From the IMG/VR virus record IMGVR_UViG_3300020160_002696, positions 22,851 to 86,850 of that record: 64,000 nt of DNA; one strand, given 5' to 3'. Origin of the DNA: a virus. The notes beneath the pieces were generated by a model, which saw only the letters and a program-made list of their open reading frames with translations, did no database searches and had not been told where the DNA came from. This document shows positions 939 to 45,701 of this stretch, piece after piece (position 1 is the stretch's first letter; each line of letters starts with the position of its first letter). Both the position numbers and the translations under genes were made by a program.

Positions 939-1230
939 ATTCTTCTGCTTCTCCAAAGTAATAATCTAAATCTATTTCATCTAAAGTATTTATAATTTCA
1001 TTGTAAGGCACTAGCTTTTCTACTATTTCTAAAACTAATTTGTTATAACCTTTCCAGTTTTCAATTGAACATCCAAGAATTTCTTCCAATGTTTCATCTA
1101 CTGTTAAGGTAACAAATTGATTCTTATAGTAAAAAGTGGCCTCATAGTATTCATCTTCATAATTCAATGATAGAATTACTAATACACCATCTTCTATTTT
1201 ACCTAAATATTCAATTATATCAAATTTCAT
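937..1230 (-). CDS. Hypothetical acidic protein
   Basis: 97-aa ORF, TAATG coupling with the upstream gene. Confidence 0.75.
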   Translation of the reverse strand: MKFDIIEYLGKIEDGVLVILSLNYEDEYYEATFYYKNQFVTLTVDETLEEILGCSIENWKGYNKLVLEIVEKLVPYNEIINTLDEIDLDYYFGEAEE

Positions 1231-1454
1231 TATCCTAAAATAGTTTCAATTTTTTCATCTCTTTCTTCTTGAGATAAATTTTTTAAAAATCCACCTCTTA
1301 TTAAAGTATTCATAATACTTATAGCTTGTTTTGTTCTACCATCAACATATGAACTCATCATATCTCTATAATAGTCATGTATATTTCTTCTCTCATCTTC
1401 TGTTTTCAGACTTGATACTTTATCAAGATCCAAATAATAATCTTCTAACTTCAT
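1230..1454 (-). CDS. Hypothetical protein with C-terminal RxxKIxxILG motif
   Basis: Likely start ATG 1454 (MKLEDYY), which avoids overlap with the upstream gene; ends EERDEKIETILG. Confidence 0.75.
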   Translation of the reverse strand: MKLEDYYLDLDKVSSLKTEDERRNIHDYYRDMMSSYVDGRTKQAISIMNTLIRGGFLKNLSQEERDEKIETILG

Positions 1455-1461
1455 TTTATAA

Positions 1462-1731
1462 TTATATTTTTTCTCCAACAACAAATTCCAATTTATGAAA
1501 TTTATTATCAGTTCCAGTAAATACAATTTGAATTTTGTCAACATCAACAAATTCTTTTGCCATACCAGTTACTTCATTAATCATAACATCTTTTTTATAG
1601 ACAACATCAATTGATGGTTCTTCTCCTAAAAATCTACGCATATCTTCTAATATCTTTGATATTTTCCAATCATCATTTTTGAAATCTATATTAGACATAT
1701 ATTGTCTAATTGAGTGTTCTTTTAAATCCAT
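1462..1731 (-). CDS. Hypothetical protein
   Basis: 89-aa ORF in a co-directional operon. Confidence 0.75.
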   Translation of the reverse strand: MDLKEHSIRQYMSNIDFKNDDWKISKILEDMRRFLGEEPSIDVVYKKDVMINEVTGMAKEFVDVDKIQIVFTGTDNKFHKLEFVVGEKI

Positions 1732-2093: not shown

Positions 2094-2486
2094 CTACCTC
2101 ATGACCCTCTTTTTAGTTTTCTTTATAGGTTTTCTATATATCTCTATTAATCCATTTGAATATTCAATTCTCTCATAAAAATATTTAATTGATACTAAAT
2201 TATGTTTTCTAACTATCTCTAATCTACCAATCACTTTAGCATCTTTTATATTTACTATGTAAGGTCCATTCTTTAATTTTCTATAGTTTCTCAAAACAGT
2301 ATCACAAACTTCTCTTCTTATAAGAGGTCTTGATTTATAATTAGAATAAACTACCATTGAATCAGAACCTCTGACATTACTTATACTTTCCATTCCATCA
2401 TAACCATGGTTATAATATTCAACTTTTTTCTGTGAATAAACAAATGTTGTTATAAACAAAAATAATAATATACTAATCTTTCTCAT
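2094..2486 (-). CDS. Putative exported protein with N-terminal signal peptide
   Basis: Likely start MRKISILLFLFITTFVYSQ (Bacteroidota-style signal peptide ending before Q). Confidence 0.65.
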   Translation of the reverse strand: MRKISILLFLFITTFVYSQKKVEYYNHGYDGMESISNVRGSDSMVVYSNYKSRPLIRREVCDTVLRNYRKLKNGPYIVNIKDAKVIGRLEIVRKHNLVSIKYFYERIEYSNGLIEIYRKPIKKTKKRVMR

Positions 2487-2643
2487 ATATGGAAACTCCA
2501 GGACTAATAAATATAGATTCATTCTTAGGTGGTAAACCTAATATTCTTCTTATTTTAATTTTACGTAAATTATTCTTAGGTATTCTGATGTATGTATTGT
2601 CAGAATAAGTGGTATAAACACCAGGTTTCATATAGACTGACAT
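2473..2643 (-). CDS. 56-aa mini-protein with sheath-like (S/K)PGV motifs and RKIKIRRILG
   Basis: Not in the ORF track: MSVYMKPGVYTTYSDNTYIRIPKNNLRKIKIRRILGLPPKNESIFISPGVSIYEKD; TAATG-coupled to the upstream gene and fills the gap exactly. Confidence 0.7.
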   Translation of the reverse strand: MSVYMKPGVYTTYSDNTYIRIPKNNLRKIKIRRILGLPPKNESIFISPGVSIYEKD

Positions 2644-3098
2644 TATATTGTAGTTGAATTTGTTGCACCATAAACAAAATCCATATAGAATAGGTGACCA
2701 CTTGGACCACTTGGTTTAATATAATCAGGATGATCCTCAGTCTTCATTTCCTCAAAATCTTTACCTTCAACAAGAGCATCAATTTTTCTATCTCTATTTT
2801 CTATCTTAACTTCTTGTTTGATTTTCTTCATTTCATCACCAGAATTACCACCACCTATTGGTGCTACTGATACTAAATCTTGTCCTATTGTTTGAGCAGC
2901 AACTCTCATTGCAATTGGTAGTAAACTACCATAATCAGGTTGTGAAGTTATTATACTATCTGGTGCAGTAACTATTTCATTAGTGGCATGTAGTTCAGCA
3001 TATTGTGACATCCACTCTTTTTTATCTTCTGAGATTTTCATACTATTAAGTACTGAATCCCATTTCTTTAGTGTTTCTTCTTTGTTTAATTTTTCCAT
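2643..3098 (-). CDS. Truncated major-capsid-protein (gp23-like) paralog, N-terminal fragment only
   Basis: KKWDSVL, LLPIAMRVAAQTIGQDLVSVAP and SGPSGHLFYMDFVYG resemble the gp23 N-terminal region; only 151 aa. Confidence 0.7.
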   Translation of the reverse strand: MEKLNKEETLKKWDSVLNSMKISEDKKEWMSQYAELHATNEIVTAPDSIITSQPDYGSLLPIAMRVAAQTIGQDLVSVAPIGGGNSGDEMKKIKQEVKIENRDRKIDALVEGKDFEEMKTEDHPDYIKPSGPSGHLFYMDFVYGATNSTTI

Positions 3099-5183: not shown

Positions 5184-6544
5184 TAGCTTATATTTATTTT
5201 GAATCTTCCACTATAAGTAACACCTGCAATTGTTGAGAATGTATATGAACTAATTTTCAAGTTTTGTGTTGTACTTAAAGTTAAATCTTGTAAAGTTATT
5301 GTTGTTGATGCATTGGCAAATCTACCAAATGTAGATAATAGTGATATATTTGCGGATGATCCTATACCAATTACATCAAAATCAATAGATGATCTTTGAG
5401 TTGTATCACCATATAATGAATATGAACTTGTTCCAACTCTAGTAAGAATTGGTGTAGTAGTTTTTATGGTATCTGTTTTGATTTTAAAATTGACTGGATT
5501 TCTTAATTCTGTATAACAAAATCTACCATCAGGTAAACTAATACCAGTAGTTCTTAAATCTAATGTGAATGAATCAGTTAAATTAAATTGTTCACTTACC
5601 ACCATCATATCAGGTGTAAAAACTATAGAATTTTCTGTAGTTGTAATAGGTAGTTCAACTATAAAACCCTGAAATACACCAAGTACACCAAGTGTTGATG
5701 TTGAGGTTGTGTTTGTATTTGGTGAGTATTGATTACTATAAAAATAACTACCACCAACGGATCCATTTGTTCTTAACCATTCATACATTATCCCAGTTAA
5801 AAATGAATTAGCACTCATAAATTTATTCATATCTATTGGAGCAGAATAAGGATTTGATATAAGTATATATGAAAGTGAATTAATTGAATTTTTCTCAAAA
5901 GGTATTCTTATAACACCAGAATTGAGCTTTCCAGTAACACTAACATTATTTGTAGTTATAGTCCAAGGTGCAGGTGTTAGTGAGAATGTATTTGGTGTTC
6001 TGATTAAAAATCCAGTTCCAGGTATAAATATACTTGCTGCAACATTAACACCCACATTGGTGGCATTAAAGTAGTAAAATTCAGAATGTAAATTTGAAAG
6101 AGGATTATATACATAAAATCTATTACTTAATGTTCCAGTTGATAGTGATTGTGTAGTTTTACCACCTATTGGATCACCCAATTGTCTATAATCTAATCTA
6201 GCTACATTAAAAGGTAAAGTTCTTGATATAGTAAGTTTAACACTTGTTGTATCAACATTAGGATTATATAAAGCCAATGCTCCATTACTGGATATGTTAA
6301 AAGTTACCCCAGAGGCAGCCTGTGTTATGTTTCTATTTACTCTAATATATGTATTTGTTGATATTGTAATTGTTCCACTATCTAAAAATAAATCTAAACA
6401 ACTTATACTACCATGAGTAGCTGTTGTATATGTACCAGCTATTCTTGCTATCATATTTACATTTGGAGTACCATTATTCCAAGAAGAACCATTCCAAGTT
6501 GTTGTAGTTCCAAATCCCAATGTAGATGGAGTAATATTTCTCAT
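5183..6544 (-). CDS. Putative virion adhesin / receptor-binding protein resembling Flavobacteriia surface proteins
   Basis: TTTWNGSSWNNGTP, LISNPYSAPIDMNKF and QGFIV motifs; S/T/N-rich beta protein at the end of the fibre operon. Confidence 0.55.
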   Translation of the reverse strand: MRNITPSTLGFGTTTTWNGSSWNNGTPNVNMIARIAGTYTTATHGSISCLDLFLDSGTITISTNTYIRVNRNITQAASGVTFNISSNGALALYNPNVDTTSVKLTISRTLPFNVARLDYRQLGDPIGGKTTQSLSTGTLSNRFYVYNPLSNLHSEFYYFNATNVGVNVAASIFIPGTGFLIRTPNTFSLTPAPWTITTNNVSVTGKLNSGVIRIPFEKNSINSLSYILISNPYSAPIDMNKFMSANSFLTGIMYEWLRTNGSVGGSYFYSNQYSPNTNTTSTSTLGVLGVFQGFIVELPITTTENSIVFTPDMMVVSEQFNLTDSFTLDLRTTGISLPDGRFCYTELRNPVNFKIKTDTIKTTTPILTRVGTSSYSLYGDTTQRSSIDFDVIGIGSSANISLLSTFGRFANASTTITLQDLTLSTTQNLKISSYTFSTIAGVTYSGRFKINIS

Positions 6545-8298
6545 TATGCAAATTTTAATTTTCCACTTACTATAACTTCTGGACTAGATGCAGAATAAAC
6601 TAATATATCTGCTAGTGAGTTAGCTCCATATGTAGTAGCAACAACATCACTTGTTGTACTAATAACTACACCTGATCCAACCACAGTTATTTGTCCTGAT
6701 GACTTTTGTAATAATGTAATTGATGTTCCTTCTACAAATGTTAAAGATGAGGTTAGTAGTAGGTTTATACTAGCAGTACCAGTATAAACTAATGTCTTTA
6801 AAAAATCATTATCTGTCACTGTGTAAGTTCCTGAAATAATACTTGAAGTTATGTTACTAAAAGAGTAATATTGACTTCCAGTTGGACCTTGACTTCCAGT
6901 TGGACCTTGACTTCCAGTTGGACCTTGACTTCCAGTTGGACCTTGACTTCCAGTTGGACCAATATCACCAGGTACACCAACTGCCCCGGATAAGTTAATT
7001 TGCCAATTAGAGTATGTTTGACCTGACAATCCATTATCCTCTGTACATGTAACACTCATTGTTCCAGTCAATGGAAAGTAACTATTAATAATAGCATGAA
7101 AATGGTCAGTTGGATTATCATTAGGTGATACTATTATAGTTTGTGATGGTGTATATGCTAATGATGTACCAACTAAAAAATCTCTCTCAAATCCAATTTC
7201 TGGTATAGTAAAAGTATCTGATGAAGTAGTTGAGTATCTATCACCATCAGCACCAGTAGGACCTTGTGGACCATCAGTACCAGTAGGACCTTGTGGACCA
7301 GTAGTACCTTGTGGACCAGTAGGACCATCAGCACCAGTAGGACCTTGTGGACCATCAGTACCAGTAGGACCTTGTGGACCATCAGCACCAGTAAGACCTT
7401 GTGGACCAGTAGGACCTTGTGGACCAGTAGGACCTTGTGGACCAGTTGCACCAATAAAAACACTATTATTTATTAATAAAGTATCTTGATTACTGGATAA
7501 AATTAAAGGAGATGCAGTTGTACCTAAATTAATATTACTTACAACTAATGATTCACCATCAGTTGATAAAGGAACACCACCAATATAAATTGTTTGTCCT
7601 GAAACATGTAAACTTTTCCATTGTGATGCACTTGTTCCTAAGTTGTATATACTATCTTGAGATGGTATAATATCAGTTATAATATTGGTAAATCTAGATT
7701 CTACATAATTTATGATATAATTTTGTACATTTTTATCAATTAACAAAGGAACTTTTTGAGTTAAAATATCTATTTGCTCTCTTAATTTAATTAATGATAA
7801 TTTTGACTCATTTGAAGTAGAAAACTCTAAAGTAATTATTCTATTACTCTTTAGATTTATTTTTAATAAATTACCAGATACATTAGTATTATTAATAGTA
7901 AATGGATCAATAGTATATTTTACAACTAAATCTATACCAAGTATTTTAATATTTCTATCTGATTGTGCTAAAGGTCTTAAAAAAGTATCATAACTATAAG
8001 GAGCAGTTGTATAACCAACTACAGGTTGTGAATTGTCAATATAATCATTTGTTTGTAACAATGTTGATATTTGTTCAAGTAATATAGATTTTGCTAAAAT
8101 AGGCTCATCAGTATTGATAAAGTCTAATTTAATTTCTTTACTACTTTTTAAGATAATTCTAAGTAAATTAACTTCGTCTATAACATCAGTTATAAATGTT
8201 GGTTTAACAGTATAAGTTAAACTACCAGTATTATCATAAAATTTAATGTTTTTATCAGAACCAATTGGCTTTAAGAAACTATTACTACTATAACTCAT
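6544..8298 (-). CDS. Collagen-like tail/capsid fibre protein
   Basis: Two Gly-X-Y tracts ([12 protein letters not shown]); duplicated N-terminal module. Confidence 0.8.
6871..6960. repeat. Five perfect 18-bp tandem repeats (encode GPTGSQ)
   Basis: TTGACTTCCAGTTGGACC x5. Confidence 0.95.
7242..7452. repeat. Collagen GXY-encoding 9/18/27-bp repeats
   Basis: Recurring CCAGTAGGACCTTGTGGA units. Confidence 0.9.
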
Positions 8299-8371
8299 TA
8301 TCTATAAATATTTTTATTAAAGTATATATAAAAAATTATAAGTCAAATTATAAGTCAATCTGATAGTATGT

Positions 8372-9853
8372 TTAATCAGTTGTTTTAGTATATTCTAAAA
8401 TTAAATAAAAATTTTCAACAAAATAAGAATAAATACCTTCAAATCTTAAAGAATTGCTAGTTGTACCTATAAAATTACCAGGATTACTTCCCAATTCAGT
8501 AGTTTGTGAATTTAATAATGCCACTGGTGATATAGAAGTTCTATCAGTTCCTGGGCCAATTGGTTGTAAGTTTACAATATCTGCTCTTAAATAAAATGCA
8601 ATAGATAAATTATGATTGATATTAACAGAGGTTTCTGATGAAGTGGCAGAAAATGAAATAACCTTTCTATAGATAGGTTTACCATCTATCCACATACCTC
8701 CTGTTAAAATCTCATTTGTTGAATATGATAGTGATGTAACTAAACCAGTATCTGTAGGACCTGTAGGACCAATTGGACCTTGTAAACCATCAGCACCTGT
8801 AGGACCAATTGGACCTTGTAAACCATCAGCACCTGTAGGACCAATTGGACCTTGTAAACCATCAGCACCTGTAGGACCTTGTATTTCTGTAAATGAACTA
8901 GTTGAACTAATTCCAGGTGTTCCACTTAAATTCATATACCAGTTACTATAAGTACCTGAACCTATAGAATTTTCAACAACTATTGAAATAAGTCCTGTTG
9001 AAAAGTCATAATAATCTACTTGTCCAGTAAAATAACCCCCTTCTGTCTCATAATCAAAGTCATATAAATTAGGTAAGTCACTATAAACAACAACATTTTG
9101 TGAACTTGAATAAGCTAAATATGGATTCACTTCTAAATCTACAACTTGTCCAATTTCAGGAACTGATAAAGTAGTAGAAGATGTGGTATAATATCTATCT
9201 GCTTGCCCTTTTTCACCACTTAAATTCATATACCAAAAACTAAATGTCTCTCCAGTTGTAATACTTGTTGAAAAATCAACAACTAGTGTCATTTGTCCAG
9301 TTGTTTTATTATAGGAATCTATTCTACTTATAAAATAGTCACCACCAACTTCATAGTTATCATCATATAAATTTGGAATATCATTATAAACAATAACACT
9401 TTGTGCAGGTGTATAGGCTAAACCGATTTGTGTTTCCAAATCTATTACTTCACCAACAATTGGTAATTGAAATGGTGTACTTGATGTTGCACTATATCTA
9501 TCTGCAGCACCTGTTGCACCAGTAGGACCTACAATAATAGAAACCTTACTAAAAATAGAGTCAACATAATTTTGTACATCTCTATCAATCAGATGTGGTA
9601 CATTTTTAATTAGTGTGTCTATTTGTATTTGTATTCTTGTTAAAGCAAGTTTTGCCTCATTTATAGTTGAGAAGTGTAATGATATTATTCTTTTGGATTT
9701 TAAGTTAATTTTAAGTATATTATTACTTATAGAAACATTTTGTATAGCAAATGGATCTATAGTATATTTAATATCATTAGTATCATCTAATATTTTTATA
9801 TTTTTATCAGATGATGTAATTGGTCTTAAAAATTTATTATAACTATAACTCAT
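8372..9853 (-). CDS. Collagen-like fibre protein, paralog of 6544..8298
   Basis: Shared N-terminus MSYSYNKFLRPI..SDKNIKI, GXY tract, C-terminal TGGMWIDGKPIYRKV fibre-tip motif. Confidence 0.8.
   Translation of the reverse strand: MSYSYNKFLRPITSSDKNIKILDDTNDIKYTIDPFAIQNVSISNNILKINLKSKRIISLHFSTINEAKLALTRIQIQIDTLIKNVPHLIDRDVQNYVDSIFSKVSIIVGPTGATGAADRYSATSSTPFQLPIVGEVIDLETQIGLAYTPAQSVIVYNDIPNLYDDNYEVGGDYFISRIDSYNKTTGQMTLVVDFSTSITTGETFSFWYMNLSGEKGQADRYYTTSSTTLSVPEIGQVVDLEVNPYLAYSSSQNVVVYSDLPNLYDFDYETEGGYFTGQVDYYDFSTGLISIVVENSIGSGTYSNWYMNLSGTPGISSTSSFTEIQGPTGADGLQGPIGPTGADGLQGPIGPTGADGLQGPIGPTGPTDTGLVTSLSYSTNEILTGGMWIDGKPIYRKVISFSATSSETSVNINHNLSIAFYLRADIVNLQPIGPGTDRTSISPVALLNSQTTELGSNPGNFIGTTSNSLRFEGIYSYFVENFYLILEYTKTTD
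8760..8867. repeat. Three 36-bp tandem repeats (collagen GADGLQGPIGPT)
   Basis: CCTGTAGGACCAATTGGACCTTGTAAACCATCAGCA x3. Confidence 0.95.
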
Positions 9854-37877: not shown

Positions 37878-37910
37878 GTAAAAACCTCTAAGAAATTAGA
37901 GGTTTACTTT
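37878..37910. terminator. Bidirectional terminator
   Basis: AAACCTCTAA-GAAA-TTAGAGGTTT at a convergent junction. Confidence 0.8.
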
Positions 37911-38423
37911 TTTTTCACCAAATGATAAACTCATTTTGTAATACCACACACACCAATAAAAAATAGTGTATAATGAGCCAATCATTGTACGTATATGAAA
38001 ATAATGTTTAATTAAACCATCAATTACTTGAAATACAATCATTAGTAAAAGCATTATAATCTGAACTTTATCTGACTTCTTTGAGTATAGTAATTTCTTT
38101 ATCTTATTAAGTCTATTACCATTAAAGAACTTATGACTTGTTATTCCTTCTAACTTATCATCCCTATTACAAGAAACACATAAATGAAAATCTTCTCTTT
38201 TTGGATCCTTTACTGCTTTTTTATATATTTCATCTAATTTATCATACTTTTCTTGTGTATCTAAATTTTCAGTTAAGTCAATTTTACAAGAATAACATCT
38301 TATACCTTGTTTAACATCCCAACTTACATTTTTTCTTTTCTTAAAAAGAATGTATAATCTTATACTTATTACTACTATACAAAGTAATGATATTGCAGAA
38401 ACTATTGTTGATAATATATCCAT
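37896..38423 (-). CDS. Membrane protein with CxxC..CxxC zinc finger
   Basis: N-terminal and two C-terminal hydrophobic helices; CYSC/CVSC followed by NRDDKLEGI. Confidence 0.7.
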   Translation of the reverse strand: MDILSTIVSAISLLCIVVISIRLYILFKKRKNVSWDVKQGIRCYSCKIDLTENLDTQEKYDKLDEIYKKAVKDPKREDFHLCVSCNRDDKLEGITSHKFFNGNRLNKIKKLLYSKKSDKVQIIMLLLMIVFQVIDGLIKHYFHIRTMIGSLYTIFYWCVWYYKMSLSFGEKKVNL

Positions 38424-45359: not shown

Positions 45360-45384
45360 AAAACCACTCAAATTGAGTGGTTTT
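45360..45384. terminator. Bidirectional terminator
   Basis: AAAACCACTC-AAATT-GAGTGGTTTT. Confidence 0.85.
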
Positions 45385-45565
45385 CTTCTTTTAATATATT
45401 TCTAATCTTTCTTTTTCTTTTTTCATTCTTGGTTTCAATTATAAGAGTAGAATATCTACTTGTTATTGACTTACTTAGATTAGGAGTTCCTGACCAAGTT
45501 GCAGCCATTGTTTGTATTGTATATGGTAACCAAACAACTCCTATATTATTTGTTAAATTCTTCAC
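45368..45565 (-). CDS. Mini-protein resembling the gp23 capsid C-terminal segment plus KRKRKIRNIL
   Basis: GVVWLPY....P...ITSRYS pattern; GTG start overlapping the upstream ORF. Confidence 0.6.
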   Translation of the reverse strand: MKNLTNNIGVVWLPYTIQTMAATWSGTPNLSKSITSRYSTLIIETKNEKRKRKIRNILKEENHSI

Positions 45566-45701
45566 TATTAAGTATTTTCAATATTTTAATTTTTCTCCAG
45601 ACATTTCTATTTGACTTCCACAATTTCTTTACATAATTTGCAAAATCATCTTCTCTTCTGTGTTTATCACCATCTTTTCCCCAACCTCTTGCAAATGACA
45701 T
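45546..45701 (-). CDS. 51-aa basic protein with RKIKILKIL motif
   Basis: Manual translation MSFARGWGKDGDKHRREDDFANYVKKLWKSNRNVWRKIKILKILNSEEFNK. Confidence 0.6.
   Translation of the reverse strand: MSFARGWGKDGDKHRREDDFANYVKKLWKSNRNVWRKIKILKILNSEEFNK

Follow-up and report, generated by a model that had tools for sequence, protein, structure and literature searches.

A 56-residue mini-protein encoded by a huge phage, here called ORF56, appears to be a remodeled piece of a contractile tail. Profile and pairwise comparisons indicate that its family descends from the beginning of the tail sheath protein, a stretch of about 60 residues. The inherited part is the N-terminal arm, often together with the GP.N.P...DF..FG segment that follows it, with the piece between the two replaced by a helix of the motif R..KI..(I/L)L. 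We propose, with a probability of roughly 0.4, that the arm mimics the "handshake" strand through which sheath subunits are joined and that the helix, a tag found in many other small proteins of these phages, is a common handle. If the mini-proteins are mimics, the largest phages would be making an undescribed use of cut-outs of their own building blocks, whether for assembly control, for the sabotage of rival phages, or for blinding immune receptors that read conserved phage proteins. A literature search, with most subscription journals outside its reach, found no description of mini-genes that join a structural fragment to a tag or of mimics of the sheath arm.

The window, that is, the whole 64,000-nucleotide stretch of DNA analyzed here, has a G+C content of 24-32% and belongs to an 86,850-base virus record rated 15% complete, which puts the full genome at roughly 600 kb. 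Among named records, the nearest are the uncultured phage genomes LR756502.1 (642,428 bases) and LR745206.1 (634,780 bases), which match a quarter of a 2.4-kb query at 73-75% identity. According to passages of PMC7162821, the four largest complete phage genomes include ones of 634 and 642 kb, and genomes of >634 kb fall in a "Mahaphage" clade and have predicted hosts in the Bacteroidetes. The features around ORF56 are as follows.

2473..2643, minus strand: ORF56, a 56-aa mini-protein with the putative layout sheath arm, helix tag, sheath arm (ORF list, conservation, pN/pS)
2596..2640, minus strand: N-terminal arm, residues 2-16 (SVYMKPGVYTTYSDN), a putative diverged copy of the sheath "handshake" strand (hhalign, PDB matches, AlphaFold2)
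2536..2577, minus strand: shared tag, residues 23-36 (KNNLRKIKIRRILG), motif R..KI..(I/L)L (AlphaFold2, motif census, codon use)
2476..2511, minus strand: putative second arm at the C-terminus, residues 45-56 (FISPGVSIYEKD) (conservation in the close-family alignment A1, homologues with the order tag then arm)
2643..3098, minus strand: 151-aa copy of the N-terminus of the major capsid protein with a tag-bearing insert, upstream of ORF56 and coupled to it
2094..2486, minus strand: downstream gene with a signal-peptide-like start (MRKISILLFLFITTFVYSQ) that overlaps the 3' end of ORF56 (ORF lists)

A coupled mini-gene and its neighbors

Judged by its own sequence and those of its relatives, ORF56 is a genuine gene of a huge phage and is translationally coupled to its neighbor. 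Its 56-aa product is MSVYMKPGVYTTYSDNTYIRIPKNNLRKIKIRRILGLPPKNESIFISPGVSIYEKD, and the reading frame ends at a TAG stop. The ATG (2643-2641) and the TAA stop of the 151-aa ORF have one base in common, forming a TAATG junction that recurs in L015, L016, L148, L149, and L150; in L002, L142, L143, and L144, the mini-gene and its neighbor overlap by 4 to 14 nt. The initial annotation had described the mini-gene as coupled directly behind a capsid fragment, and both the junction and the identity of the neighbor bear this out. The 151-aa protein matches the N-terminus of the gp23-type major capsid protein of relatives with E values of 7.4e-8 and 1.3e-7, that capsid protein being itself identified by PF07068 (E 4.5e-28; also 6.8e-26). 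No Pfam or PHROG family was found for the 151-aa protein, and its gene is syntenic in L002, L003, L015, L016, L142, L143, and L144. The order of the two genes, with the mini-gene behind the capsid-fragment gene and the stop and start overlapping, holds in L015, L016, L148-L150, and LR756502, and the same syntenic order is present in three near-complete genomes of 385-476 kb (G001, G002, and G004).

At its 3' end, ORF56 runs for its final 14 nt inside the likely start (MRKISILLF, 2486) of the downstream gene, and its final four codons (YEKD) are common to the start of that gene. The downstream gene occurs in the closest relatives only (L015 and L016), with no counterpart in L002 or L003, and lies between the mini-gene and a T5orf172 gene. 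The latter, a T5orf172/MUG113-domain gene at 1748-2080 on the minus strand (PF13455, E 1.4e-18), comes after the mini-gene pair in the window and also in L002, L003, L015, L016, L142, and L143, but not in L144.

The standard genetic code applies to these reading frames. Among stop-to-stop frames of at least 150 aa, TAA ends 42 of 50, TAG five, and TGA three, and reading TAG or TGA as sense yields only 4 or 8 extra long frames. An alternative code for the window was ruled out, given that stop usage and ORF lengths fit table 11.

Conservation in relatives, which the initial annotation had named as a check, proved extensive. A search of 5.8 billion proteins retrieved 29 close clusters of 45-60 aa (E 5e-26 to 1.6e-10), some on contigs that reach 656 kb, and their alignment contains in-frame indels of 5 aa and 2 aa. 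An exhaustive profile search of 1.84 billion representatives extended the family to 61 clusters at 50% identity (E<=1e-3); 59 of these measure 32-100 aa, and the remaining two, both long and repetitive, match at the basic stretch only. Scans with profile A1 gave just two loci in viral contigs and four in metagenomes. In the close-family alignment A1, P7, G8, V9, Y10, K23, N24, R27, I31, L35, G49, and E54 are invariant, and P48 and V50 are at least 90% conserved; moreover, P7, G8, and V9 stay invariant even across distant family members. The description of a 56-aa mini-protein with PGV motifs flanking an RxxKI stretch therefore stands, as both PGV motifs and the stretch between them are conserved. 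Among the window, L015, L016, L150, and L151, pN/pS is 0.16-0.53 in 10 of 10 pairs, and third codon positions differ most often, with ties in one pair.

The gene is not universal in the group. A search with the wider profile found no family member in G003 (98% complete) or in G005, and in LR745206, a different 84-aa ORF occupies the syntenic place. These absences argue against an essential role in the assembly of the phage's own sheath.

It is highly implausible that ORF56 is not a gene at all, that is, a chance ORF, what is left of a dead sheath gene, or a signal in the nucleic acid that happens to read as RxxKI. Its small size would fit such a reading, as would the lack of any match among Pfam and PHROG families (0 in either) and the two metatranscriptome runs (X17 and X19) that leave it uncovered, with contigs that span the capsid-fragment gene only in part. 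ORF56 is covered in two further runs, X15 and X16, whose kind is uncertain, and this coverage speaks neither for nor against expression. Some sources label its homologues "hypothetical protein." Against the reading as a nongene stand the pN/pS below 1 in every pair, the in-frame indels, the 61 divergent clusters that keep size and architecture, and tag codons that vary like those of the genome at large.

An arm cut from the tail sheath

The sheath protein of the relatives is 1283-1332 aa long and of the gp18 type (PF04984, E 1.3e-7; PDB 9mkb, E 3.5e-10), and 297 stretches were confirmed as encoding relatives of the sheath query. Its N-terminus reads MA(I/V)QIGKYKRPGIF(I/L)EE(F/Y)D in 80 of 80 sequences, taken as the best 80 of the 297 loci. 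Six independent comparisons connect the mini-proteins to this N-terminus and bear out the sheath-arm likeness noticed in the initial annotation. First, an hhalign comparison of 8 diverse minis with 13 sheath N-termini gave a probability of 81.5 (E 1.1e-5), pairing residues 2-57 of the mini with residues 6-49 of the sheath and leaving a 10-residue gap at the tag. Second, among 221 LR756502 ORF products of at least 250 aa, the sheath ranked first (score 29.4; runner-up 23.5), in a match that runs from N-terminus to N-terminus. Third, an alignment of the family member P0047 (MGKYKRPGIYIEEHD...) with the 1296-aa sheath of G001 spans sheath residues 5-62 at E 4e-9, with 24 of 73 residues identical and gaps at the tag only.

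Further searches point the same way. The wider profile A8 gave four matches among 177,635 PDB entries at E<=10, all of them tail sheath proteins aligned at residues 1-15 (best 9ezm_A, E 0.0037), with a weak second stretch on P..I.N..DF..FG. A8 also recovers the N-terminus of the sheath gene in every related genome searched (5 of 5), as two separate matches that leave out the tag (arm, E 6e-4 to 4e-3; second segment, E 0.004 to 0.146). The pattern PG[VI][FY]..E.D, which was picked after viewing both sequences, occurs in 2 of 15,678 six-frame LR756502 ORFs, namely, the sheath N-terminus and the mini. Not every search recovered the relationship. The close-family profile A1 matched no sheath in the PDB and produced only a chance nitroreductase match (E 1.6), and when tagged small ORFs were compared by BLASTP with the large LR756502 proteins, no link between the 65-aa mini and the sheath emerged, the top match of that mini being spurious (E 0.01).

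The initial annotation had expected an SPGV arm on the phage's own sheath. The sheath of the lineage is indeed the best match, but its arm reads KYKRPGIF(I/L)EE(F/Y)D rather than SPGV. A capsid origin of the PGV motif, from the C-terminal QPGIIFVPY that appears in the L021 mini, was ruled out for ORF56 because the sheath is the top match and because the two share a D at +8.

The likeness to known contractile sheaths (T4 gp18 type; PF04984; 9ezm_A, 7adz, 8bky_A, 8bl4_V, and 9mkb) covers the first ~15 residues (M..Y.SPGVY..E.D), which are homologous, and in many family members extends to the P..I.N..DF..FG segment. ORF56 is nevertheless only 56 residues long against about 1,300 for the sheath, with a helix tag spliced in and, in the window's subgroup, a second arm at the C-terminus. 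It has no sheath body or lattice-forming C-terminal domain and so is not a sheath protein.

Whether one arm or two are present depends on the subgroup. By regular expression, an arm-like motif is present in 58 of the 59 small representatives and a tag-like motif in 52, and in 47 the arm precedes the tag. Most distant members follow the order arm, tag, next sheath segment (...TSTPKGPNNFP..., ...NNYDDFE..FG), whereas members of the window's subgroup end in FISPGV(S/Y/P)..EKD instead. Four representatives have a clear arm (ISPGVY..E.D) behind the same ...ILGLP(P/E)KN tag; in P0076, one arm precedes the tag and another follows it, and P0077, P0079, and P0087 have the tag followed by an arm. These four identify the C-terminal FISPGVSIYEKD of ORF56 as a second arm, and the earlier picture of two arms joined by the tag thus holds for the window's subgroup. 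L015 is without the second arm. Also, the N-terminal arm of the window's subgroup lacks the acidic pattern (PGVYTTYSD).

A tag shared with capsid-derived mini-proteins

The LRKIKIRRIL stretch of ORF56 falls under the motif R..KI..(I/L)L, and the tag is predicted to be a helix. AlphaFold2, run on a 29-row alignment (mean pLDDT 66.8), places a helix at residues 23-35, with block means of 76 for residues 21-30 and 89 for residues 31-40, and short strands at residues 2-6 and 9-12, both within the N-terminal arm, and at 18-20 and 45-47.

A census of six-frame ORFs of at least 30 aa found the motif 42 times in LR756502 against 7 for a reversed-motif control, and it lies within 8 residues of the C-terminus in 33 of the 42 (3 of 7 for the control). 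In the record that contains the window, the counts are 9 and 1. This shorter motif with its reversed control proved informative where a strict full-tag HMM did not: the latter placed only its own three training members above shuffled noise. Arginine codons at the fixed tag positions (AGA 36, AGG 9, CGT 5, and CGA 1; n=51) vary as they do in long ORFs (AGA/AGG/CGT/CGA = 0.74/0.14/0.06/0.04), which indicates selection on the peptide rather than the nucleic acid. This codon variety disfavors the idea that the tag arose at the DNA or RNA level.

LR756502 has 35 motif-bearing products of at least 60 aa, and 32 were scanned, leaving aside one over a tile end and two fragment minis; none of the 32 scored above the Pfam cutoff, and 2 matched PHROGs, both of unknown function. 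The carriers elsewhere in the window include the following.

1230..1550, minus strand: ordinary 106-aa protein with the canonical acidic tag form (ERDEKIETILG) at its end (ORF list, census)
37896-38423, minus strand: 175-aa protein with an internal RLNKIKKLL motif (motif carrier)
45368..45565, minus strand: 65-aa mini, a copy of capsid C-terminal strands with a tag (KRKRKIRNIL), ending in KRKRKIRNILKEENHSI (motif census)
45546..45701, minus strand: 51-aa tagged mini-gene (RKIKILKIL), just upstream of the 65-aa mini (motif census)

The closest parallels to ORF56 are mini-genes that combine the tag with pieces of the capsid. In the 151-aa neighbor, the canonical acidic tag NRDRKIDALVEG occupies residues 101-112 (nt 2763-2798) within an insert, about 45 residues long, that separates two conserved capsid strands; as read from the sequence, this is the same design of a tag spliced into a loop as in ORF56. 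The locus at 45368-45701 consists of chained minis, is syntenic with loci of LR756502 and LR745206, and lies beside a gene of the phrog_858 family. The LR756502 homologue of 45368..45565, at 277261-277446, matches residues 513-546 of the capsid protein by BLASTP (E 3.7e-6), and another tagged LR756502 mini matches capsid residues 421-451 (BLASTP, E 0.003). Tagged minis that copy a helix region of the capsid protein are present in L011 and L012, with counterparts in LR745206. Like ORF56, these are small conserved ORFs, chained or coupled, in which a piece of a virion protein is joined to the shared short tag; they differ in their donor, which is a head protein for them and a tail protein, the sheath, for ORF56.

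Capsid C-terminal minis were also observed at L163 1432-1719 and L164 1393-1674 (G001 and G004), where the tag RKRKINKIF sits between the two conserved strands and not at the end. Within the 151-aa gene, positions 2864-2937 of the window, which encode LLPIAMRVAAQTIG, show a contig depth peak of about five-fold in several metagenome and metatranscriptome runs, probably because the true capsid genes of many related phages match this DNA.

In another reading, the tag alone does the work and the likeness to the sheath is ancestry only. ORF56 would then act like the ~40 other tagged proteins, as cargo, degradation substrate, or regulator, and would have no sheath-related partners. The tag is the most confidently modeled and best conserved element of ORF56, the N-terminal arm has drifted in the window's subgroup, and one close relative (L015) lacks the second arm. 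Nevertheless, we consider this reading unlikely: the PGV that is invariant in distant members and the arm-like motif kept by 58 of 59 representatives are hard to explain without selection on the arm.

Proposed handshake mimicry and competing functions

We favor the reading in which the arm of ORF56 mimics the "handshake" strand. Passages of PMC10457771 on solved sheaths describe how the N-terminal strand of one subunit pairs with the C-terminal strand of its neighbor in this "handshake," extending the C-terminal domain sheet of a subunit in the adjacent ring. ORF56 would present a strand arm, a basic helix, and a second strand arm. As a mimic of the handshake strand, the mini-protein would therefore sit, by its free arm, in the site that normally reads the sheath arm; the simplest candidate is the C-terminal domain of a sheath subunit. 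Such occupancy would cap or hold back sheath polymerization. The helix would be the handle for one reader common to all tagged proteins. Some 40 other small proteins per genome terminate in this helix, and it also marks the capsid-derived minis. Possible targets are the phage's own sheath, the sheath of a rival, or a host sensor. Points against mimicry are the generic-looking arms, the lost acidic pattern of the N-terminal arm, and the fact that the last four codons of the C-terminal arm lie within the next gene.

The initial annotation had suggested modeling the peptide with the sheath. For the cognate pair of G001, residues 22-345 and 930-1296 of the sheath were supplied as two chains together with the 61-aa mini of that genome, and the alignment was without the LR756502 row. 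The prediction scored 0.57/0.57/0.58, graded as weak support, compared with 0.00 and 0.00 for unrelated partners and 0.12, the best control, when the C-terminal part of the sheath was replaced. The partner pLDDT was 40-42, and the runs agreed in at least 40% of contacts. When the method was calibrated, 116 of 157 solved complexes and 2 of 215 mismatches attained the mark; at scores of 0.60 or lower, only 18 of the 157 solved complexes did so, along with both mismatches. Also, sheath lattices have already been solved, and the score may therefore show likeness, a memory of those lattices, instead of binding.

Small proteins derived from larger ones offer useful comparisons. microProteins of plants and animals are small paralogues of an interaction domain that act as dominant negatives. 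ORF56 likewise comes from a contact-making piece of a larger protein and is too small for the job of its parent; it differs in being a phage protein, in carrying a shared tag that has no counterpart there, and in that its binding to the parent is only predicted here. Strand addition offers a second comparison, as in the donor-strand complementation of chaperone-usher pili and in the capping of FtsZ by MciZ. The mechanism proposed for ORF56, a short strand placed in the groove of the next subunit, would resemble these by analogy of mechanism only, as they have no relation to ORF56 in sequence or fold. If the handshake reading is right, ORF56 would be a natural peptide template for capping contractile sheaths, and the 56-residue peptide and the sheath C-terminal domain make up a concrete, testable pair.

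The sequence of the arms bears on who the target might be. Arms of the minis (KYVSPGVYVKEVDIS type) are nearer to the generic N-termini of solved sheaths (MSEYQSPGVYVEEV) than to the invariant arm of their own lineage (KYKRPGIFIEEFD), and they turn over fast between sub-lineages. Both observations would suit a weapon against competitors, in which a generic arm poisons sheath formation by prophages, tailocins, or co-infecting myophages and leaves unharmed the phage itself, whose arm and site have diverged. We regard such a weapon as very unlikely, since the sheath C-terminal domain on which the arm would dock shows high conservation, and it is not obvious how the phage would spare itself.

Arms that are generic rather than lineage-specific would also serve a decoy against host immunity. 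Here, the arm on its common handle would be offered to a bacterial sensor of the sheath N-terminus, the neighboring capsid fragments would do likewise for capsid sensors, and abortive infection would be blunted. Consistent with this reading, the mini-genes keep the most conserved pieces of virion proteins (the sheath arm and, from the capsid, the N-arm, helix, and C-terminal strands); some near-complete relatives lack the gene, which marks it as accessory; the tagged proteins belong to no known family, as is typical of host-takeover genes; and STAND receptors of bacteria sense many core phage proteins, according to passages of PMC13581612. However, there is no known sheath sensor, those passages (2026) name the sheath only as a possible further target, and a decoy could equally trigger a sensor. 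On balance, we find a decoy function doubtful.

We tentatively raise, as a minor possibility, a modular "bait and handle" system in which short interface pieces of the most conserved virion proteins, among them the sheath handshake arm alongside capsid pieces, are each fused to a lineage-specific helix that delivers them to a common reader. The reader might be a protease, a chaperone, or a packaging or sequestration machine, and the system might disarm host sensors of the core phage proteome or else police or sabotage virion assembly; to the same tentative degree, ORF56 would be its first tail-derived bait. The shared tag implies a reader handling roughly 40 proteins per genome.

Two tagged frames outside the window were noted in passing. 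In LR745206, at about 482 kb, a 54-aa frame (L157 1456-1620) combines an arm-like FITPGIWGYPDDFS with the tag ALRKSKIKKIF. It lies away from the syntenic site, ahead of an overlapping long ORF, and may be a second, relocated sheath-arm mini. Just beyond the window, on the minus strand of the same record (G000:C1:21912-22049), a 45-aa frame joins a collagen-like GPTGSSGPVGVTGIP to the tag RMIKIRKIL and may be a fragment of the collagen-repeat tail-fiber proteins encoded at 6544-9853 of the window.
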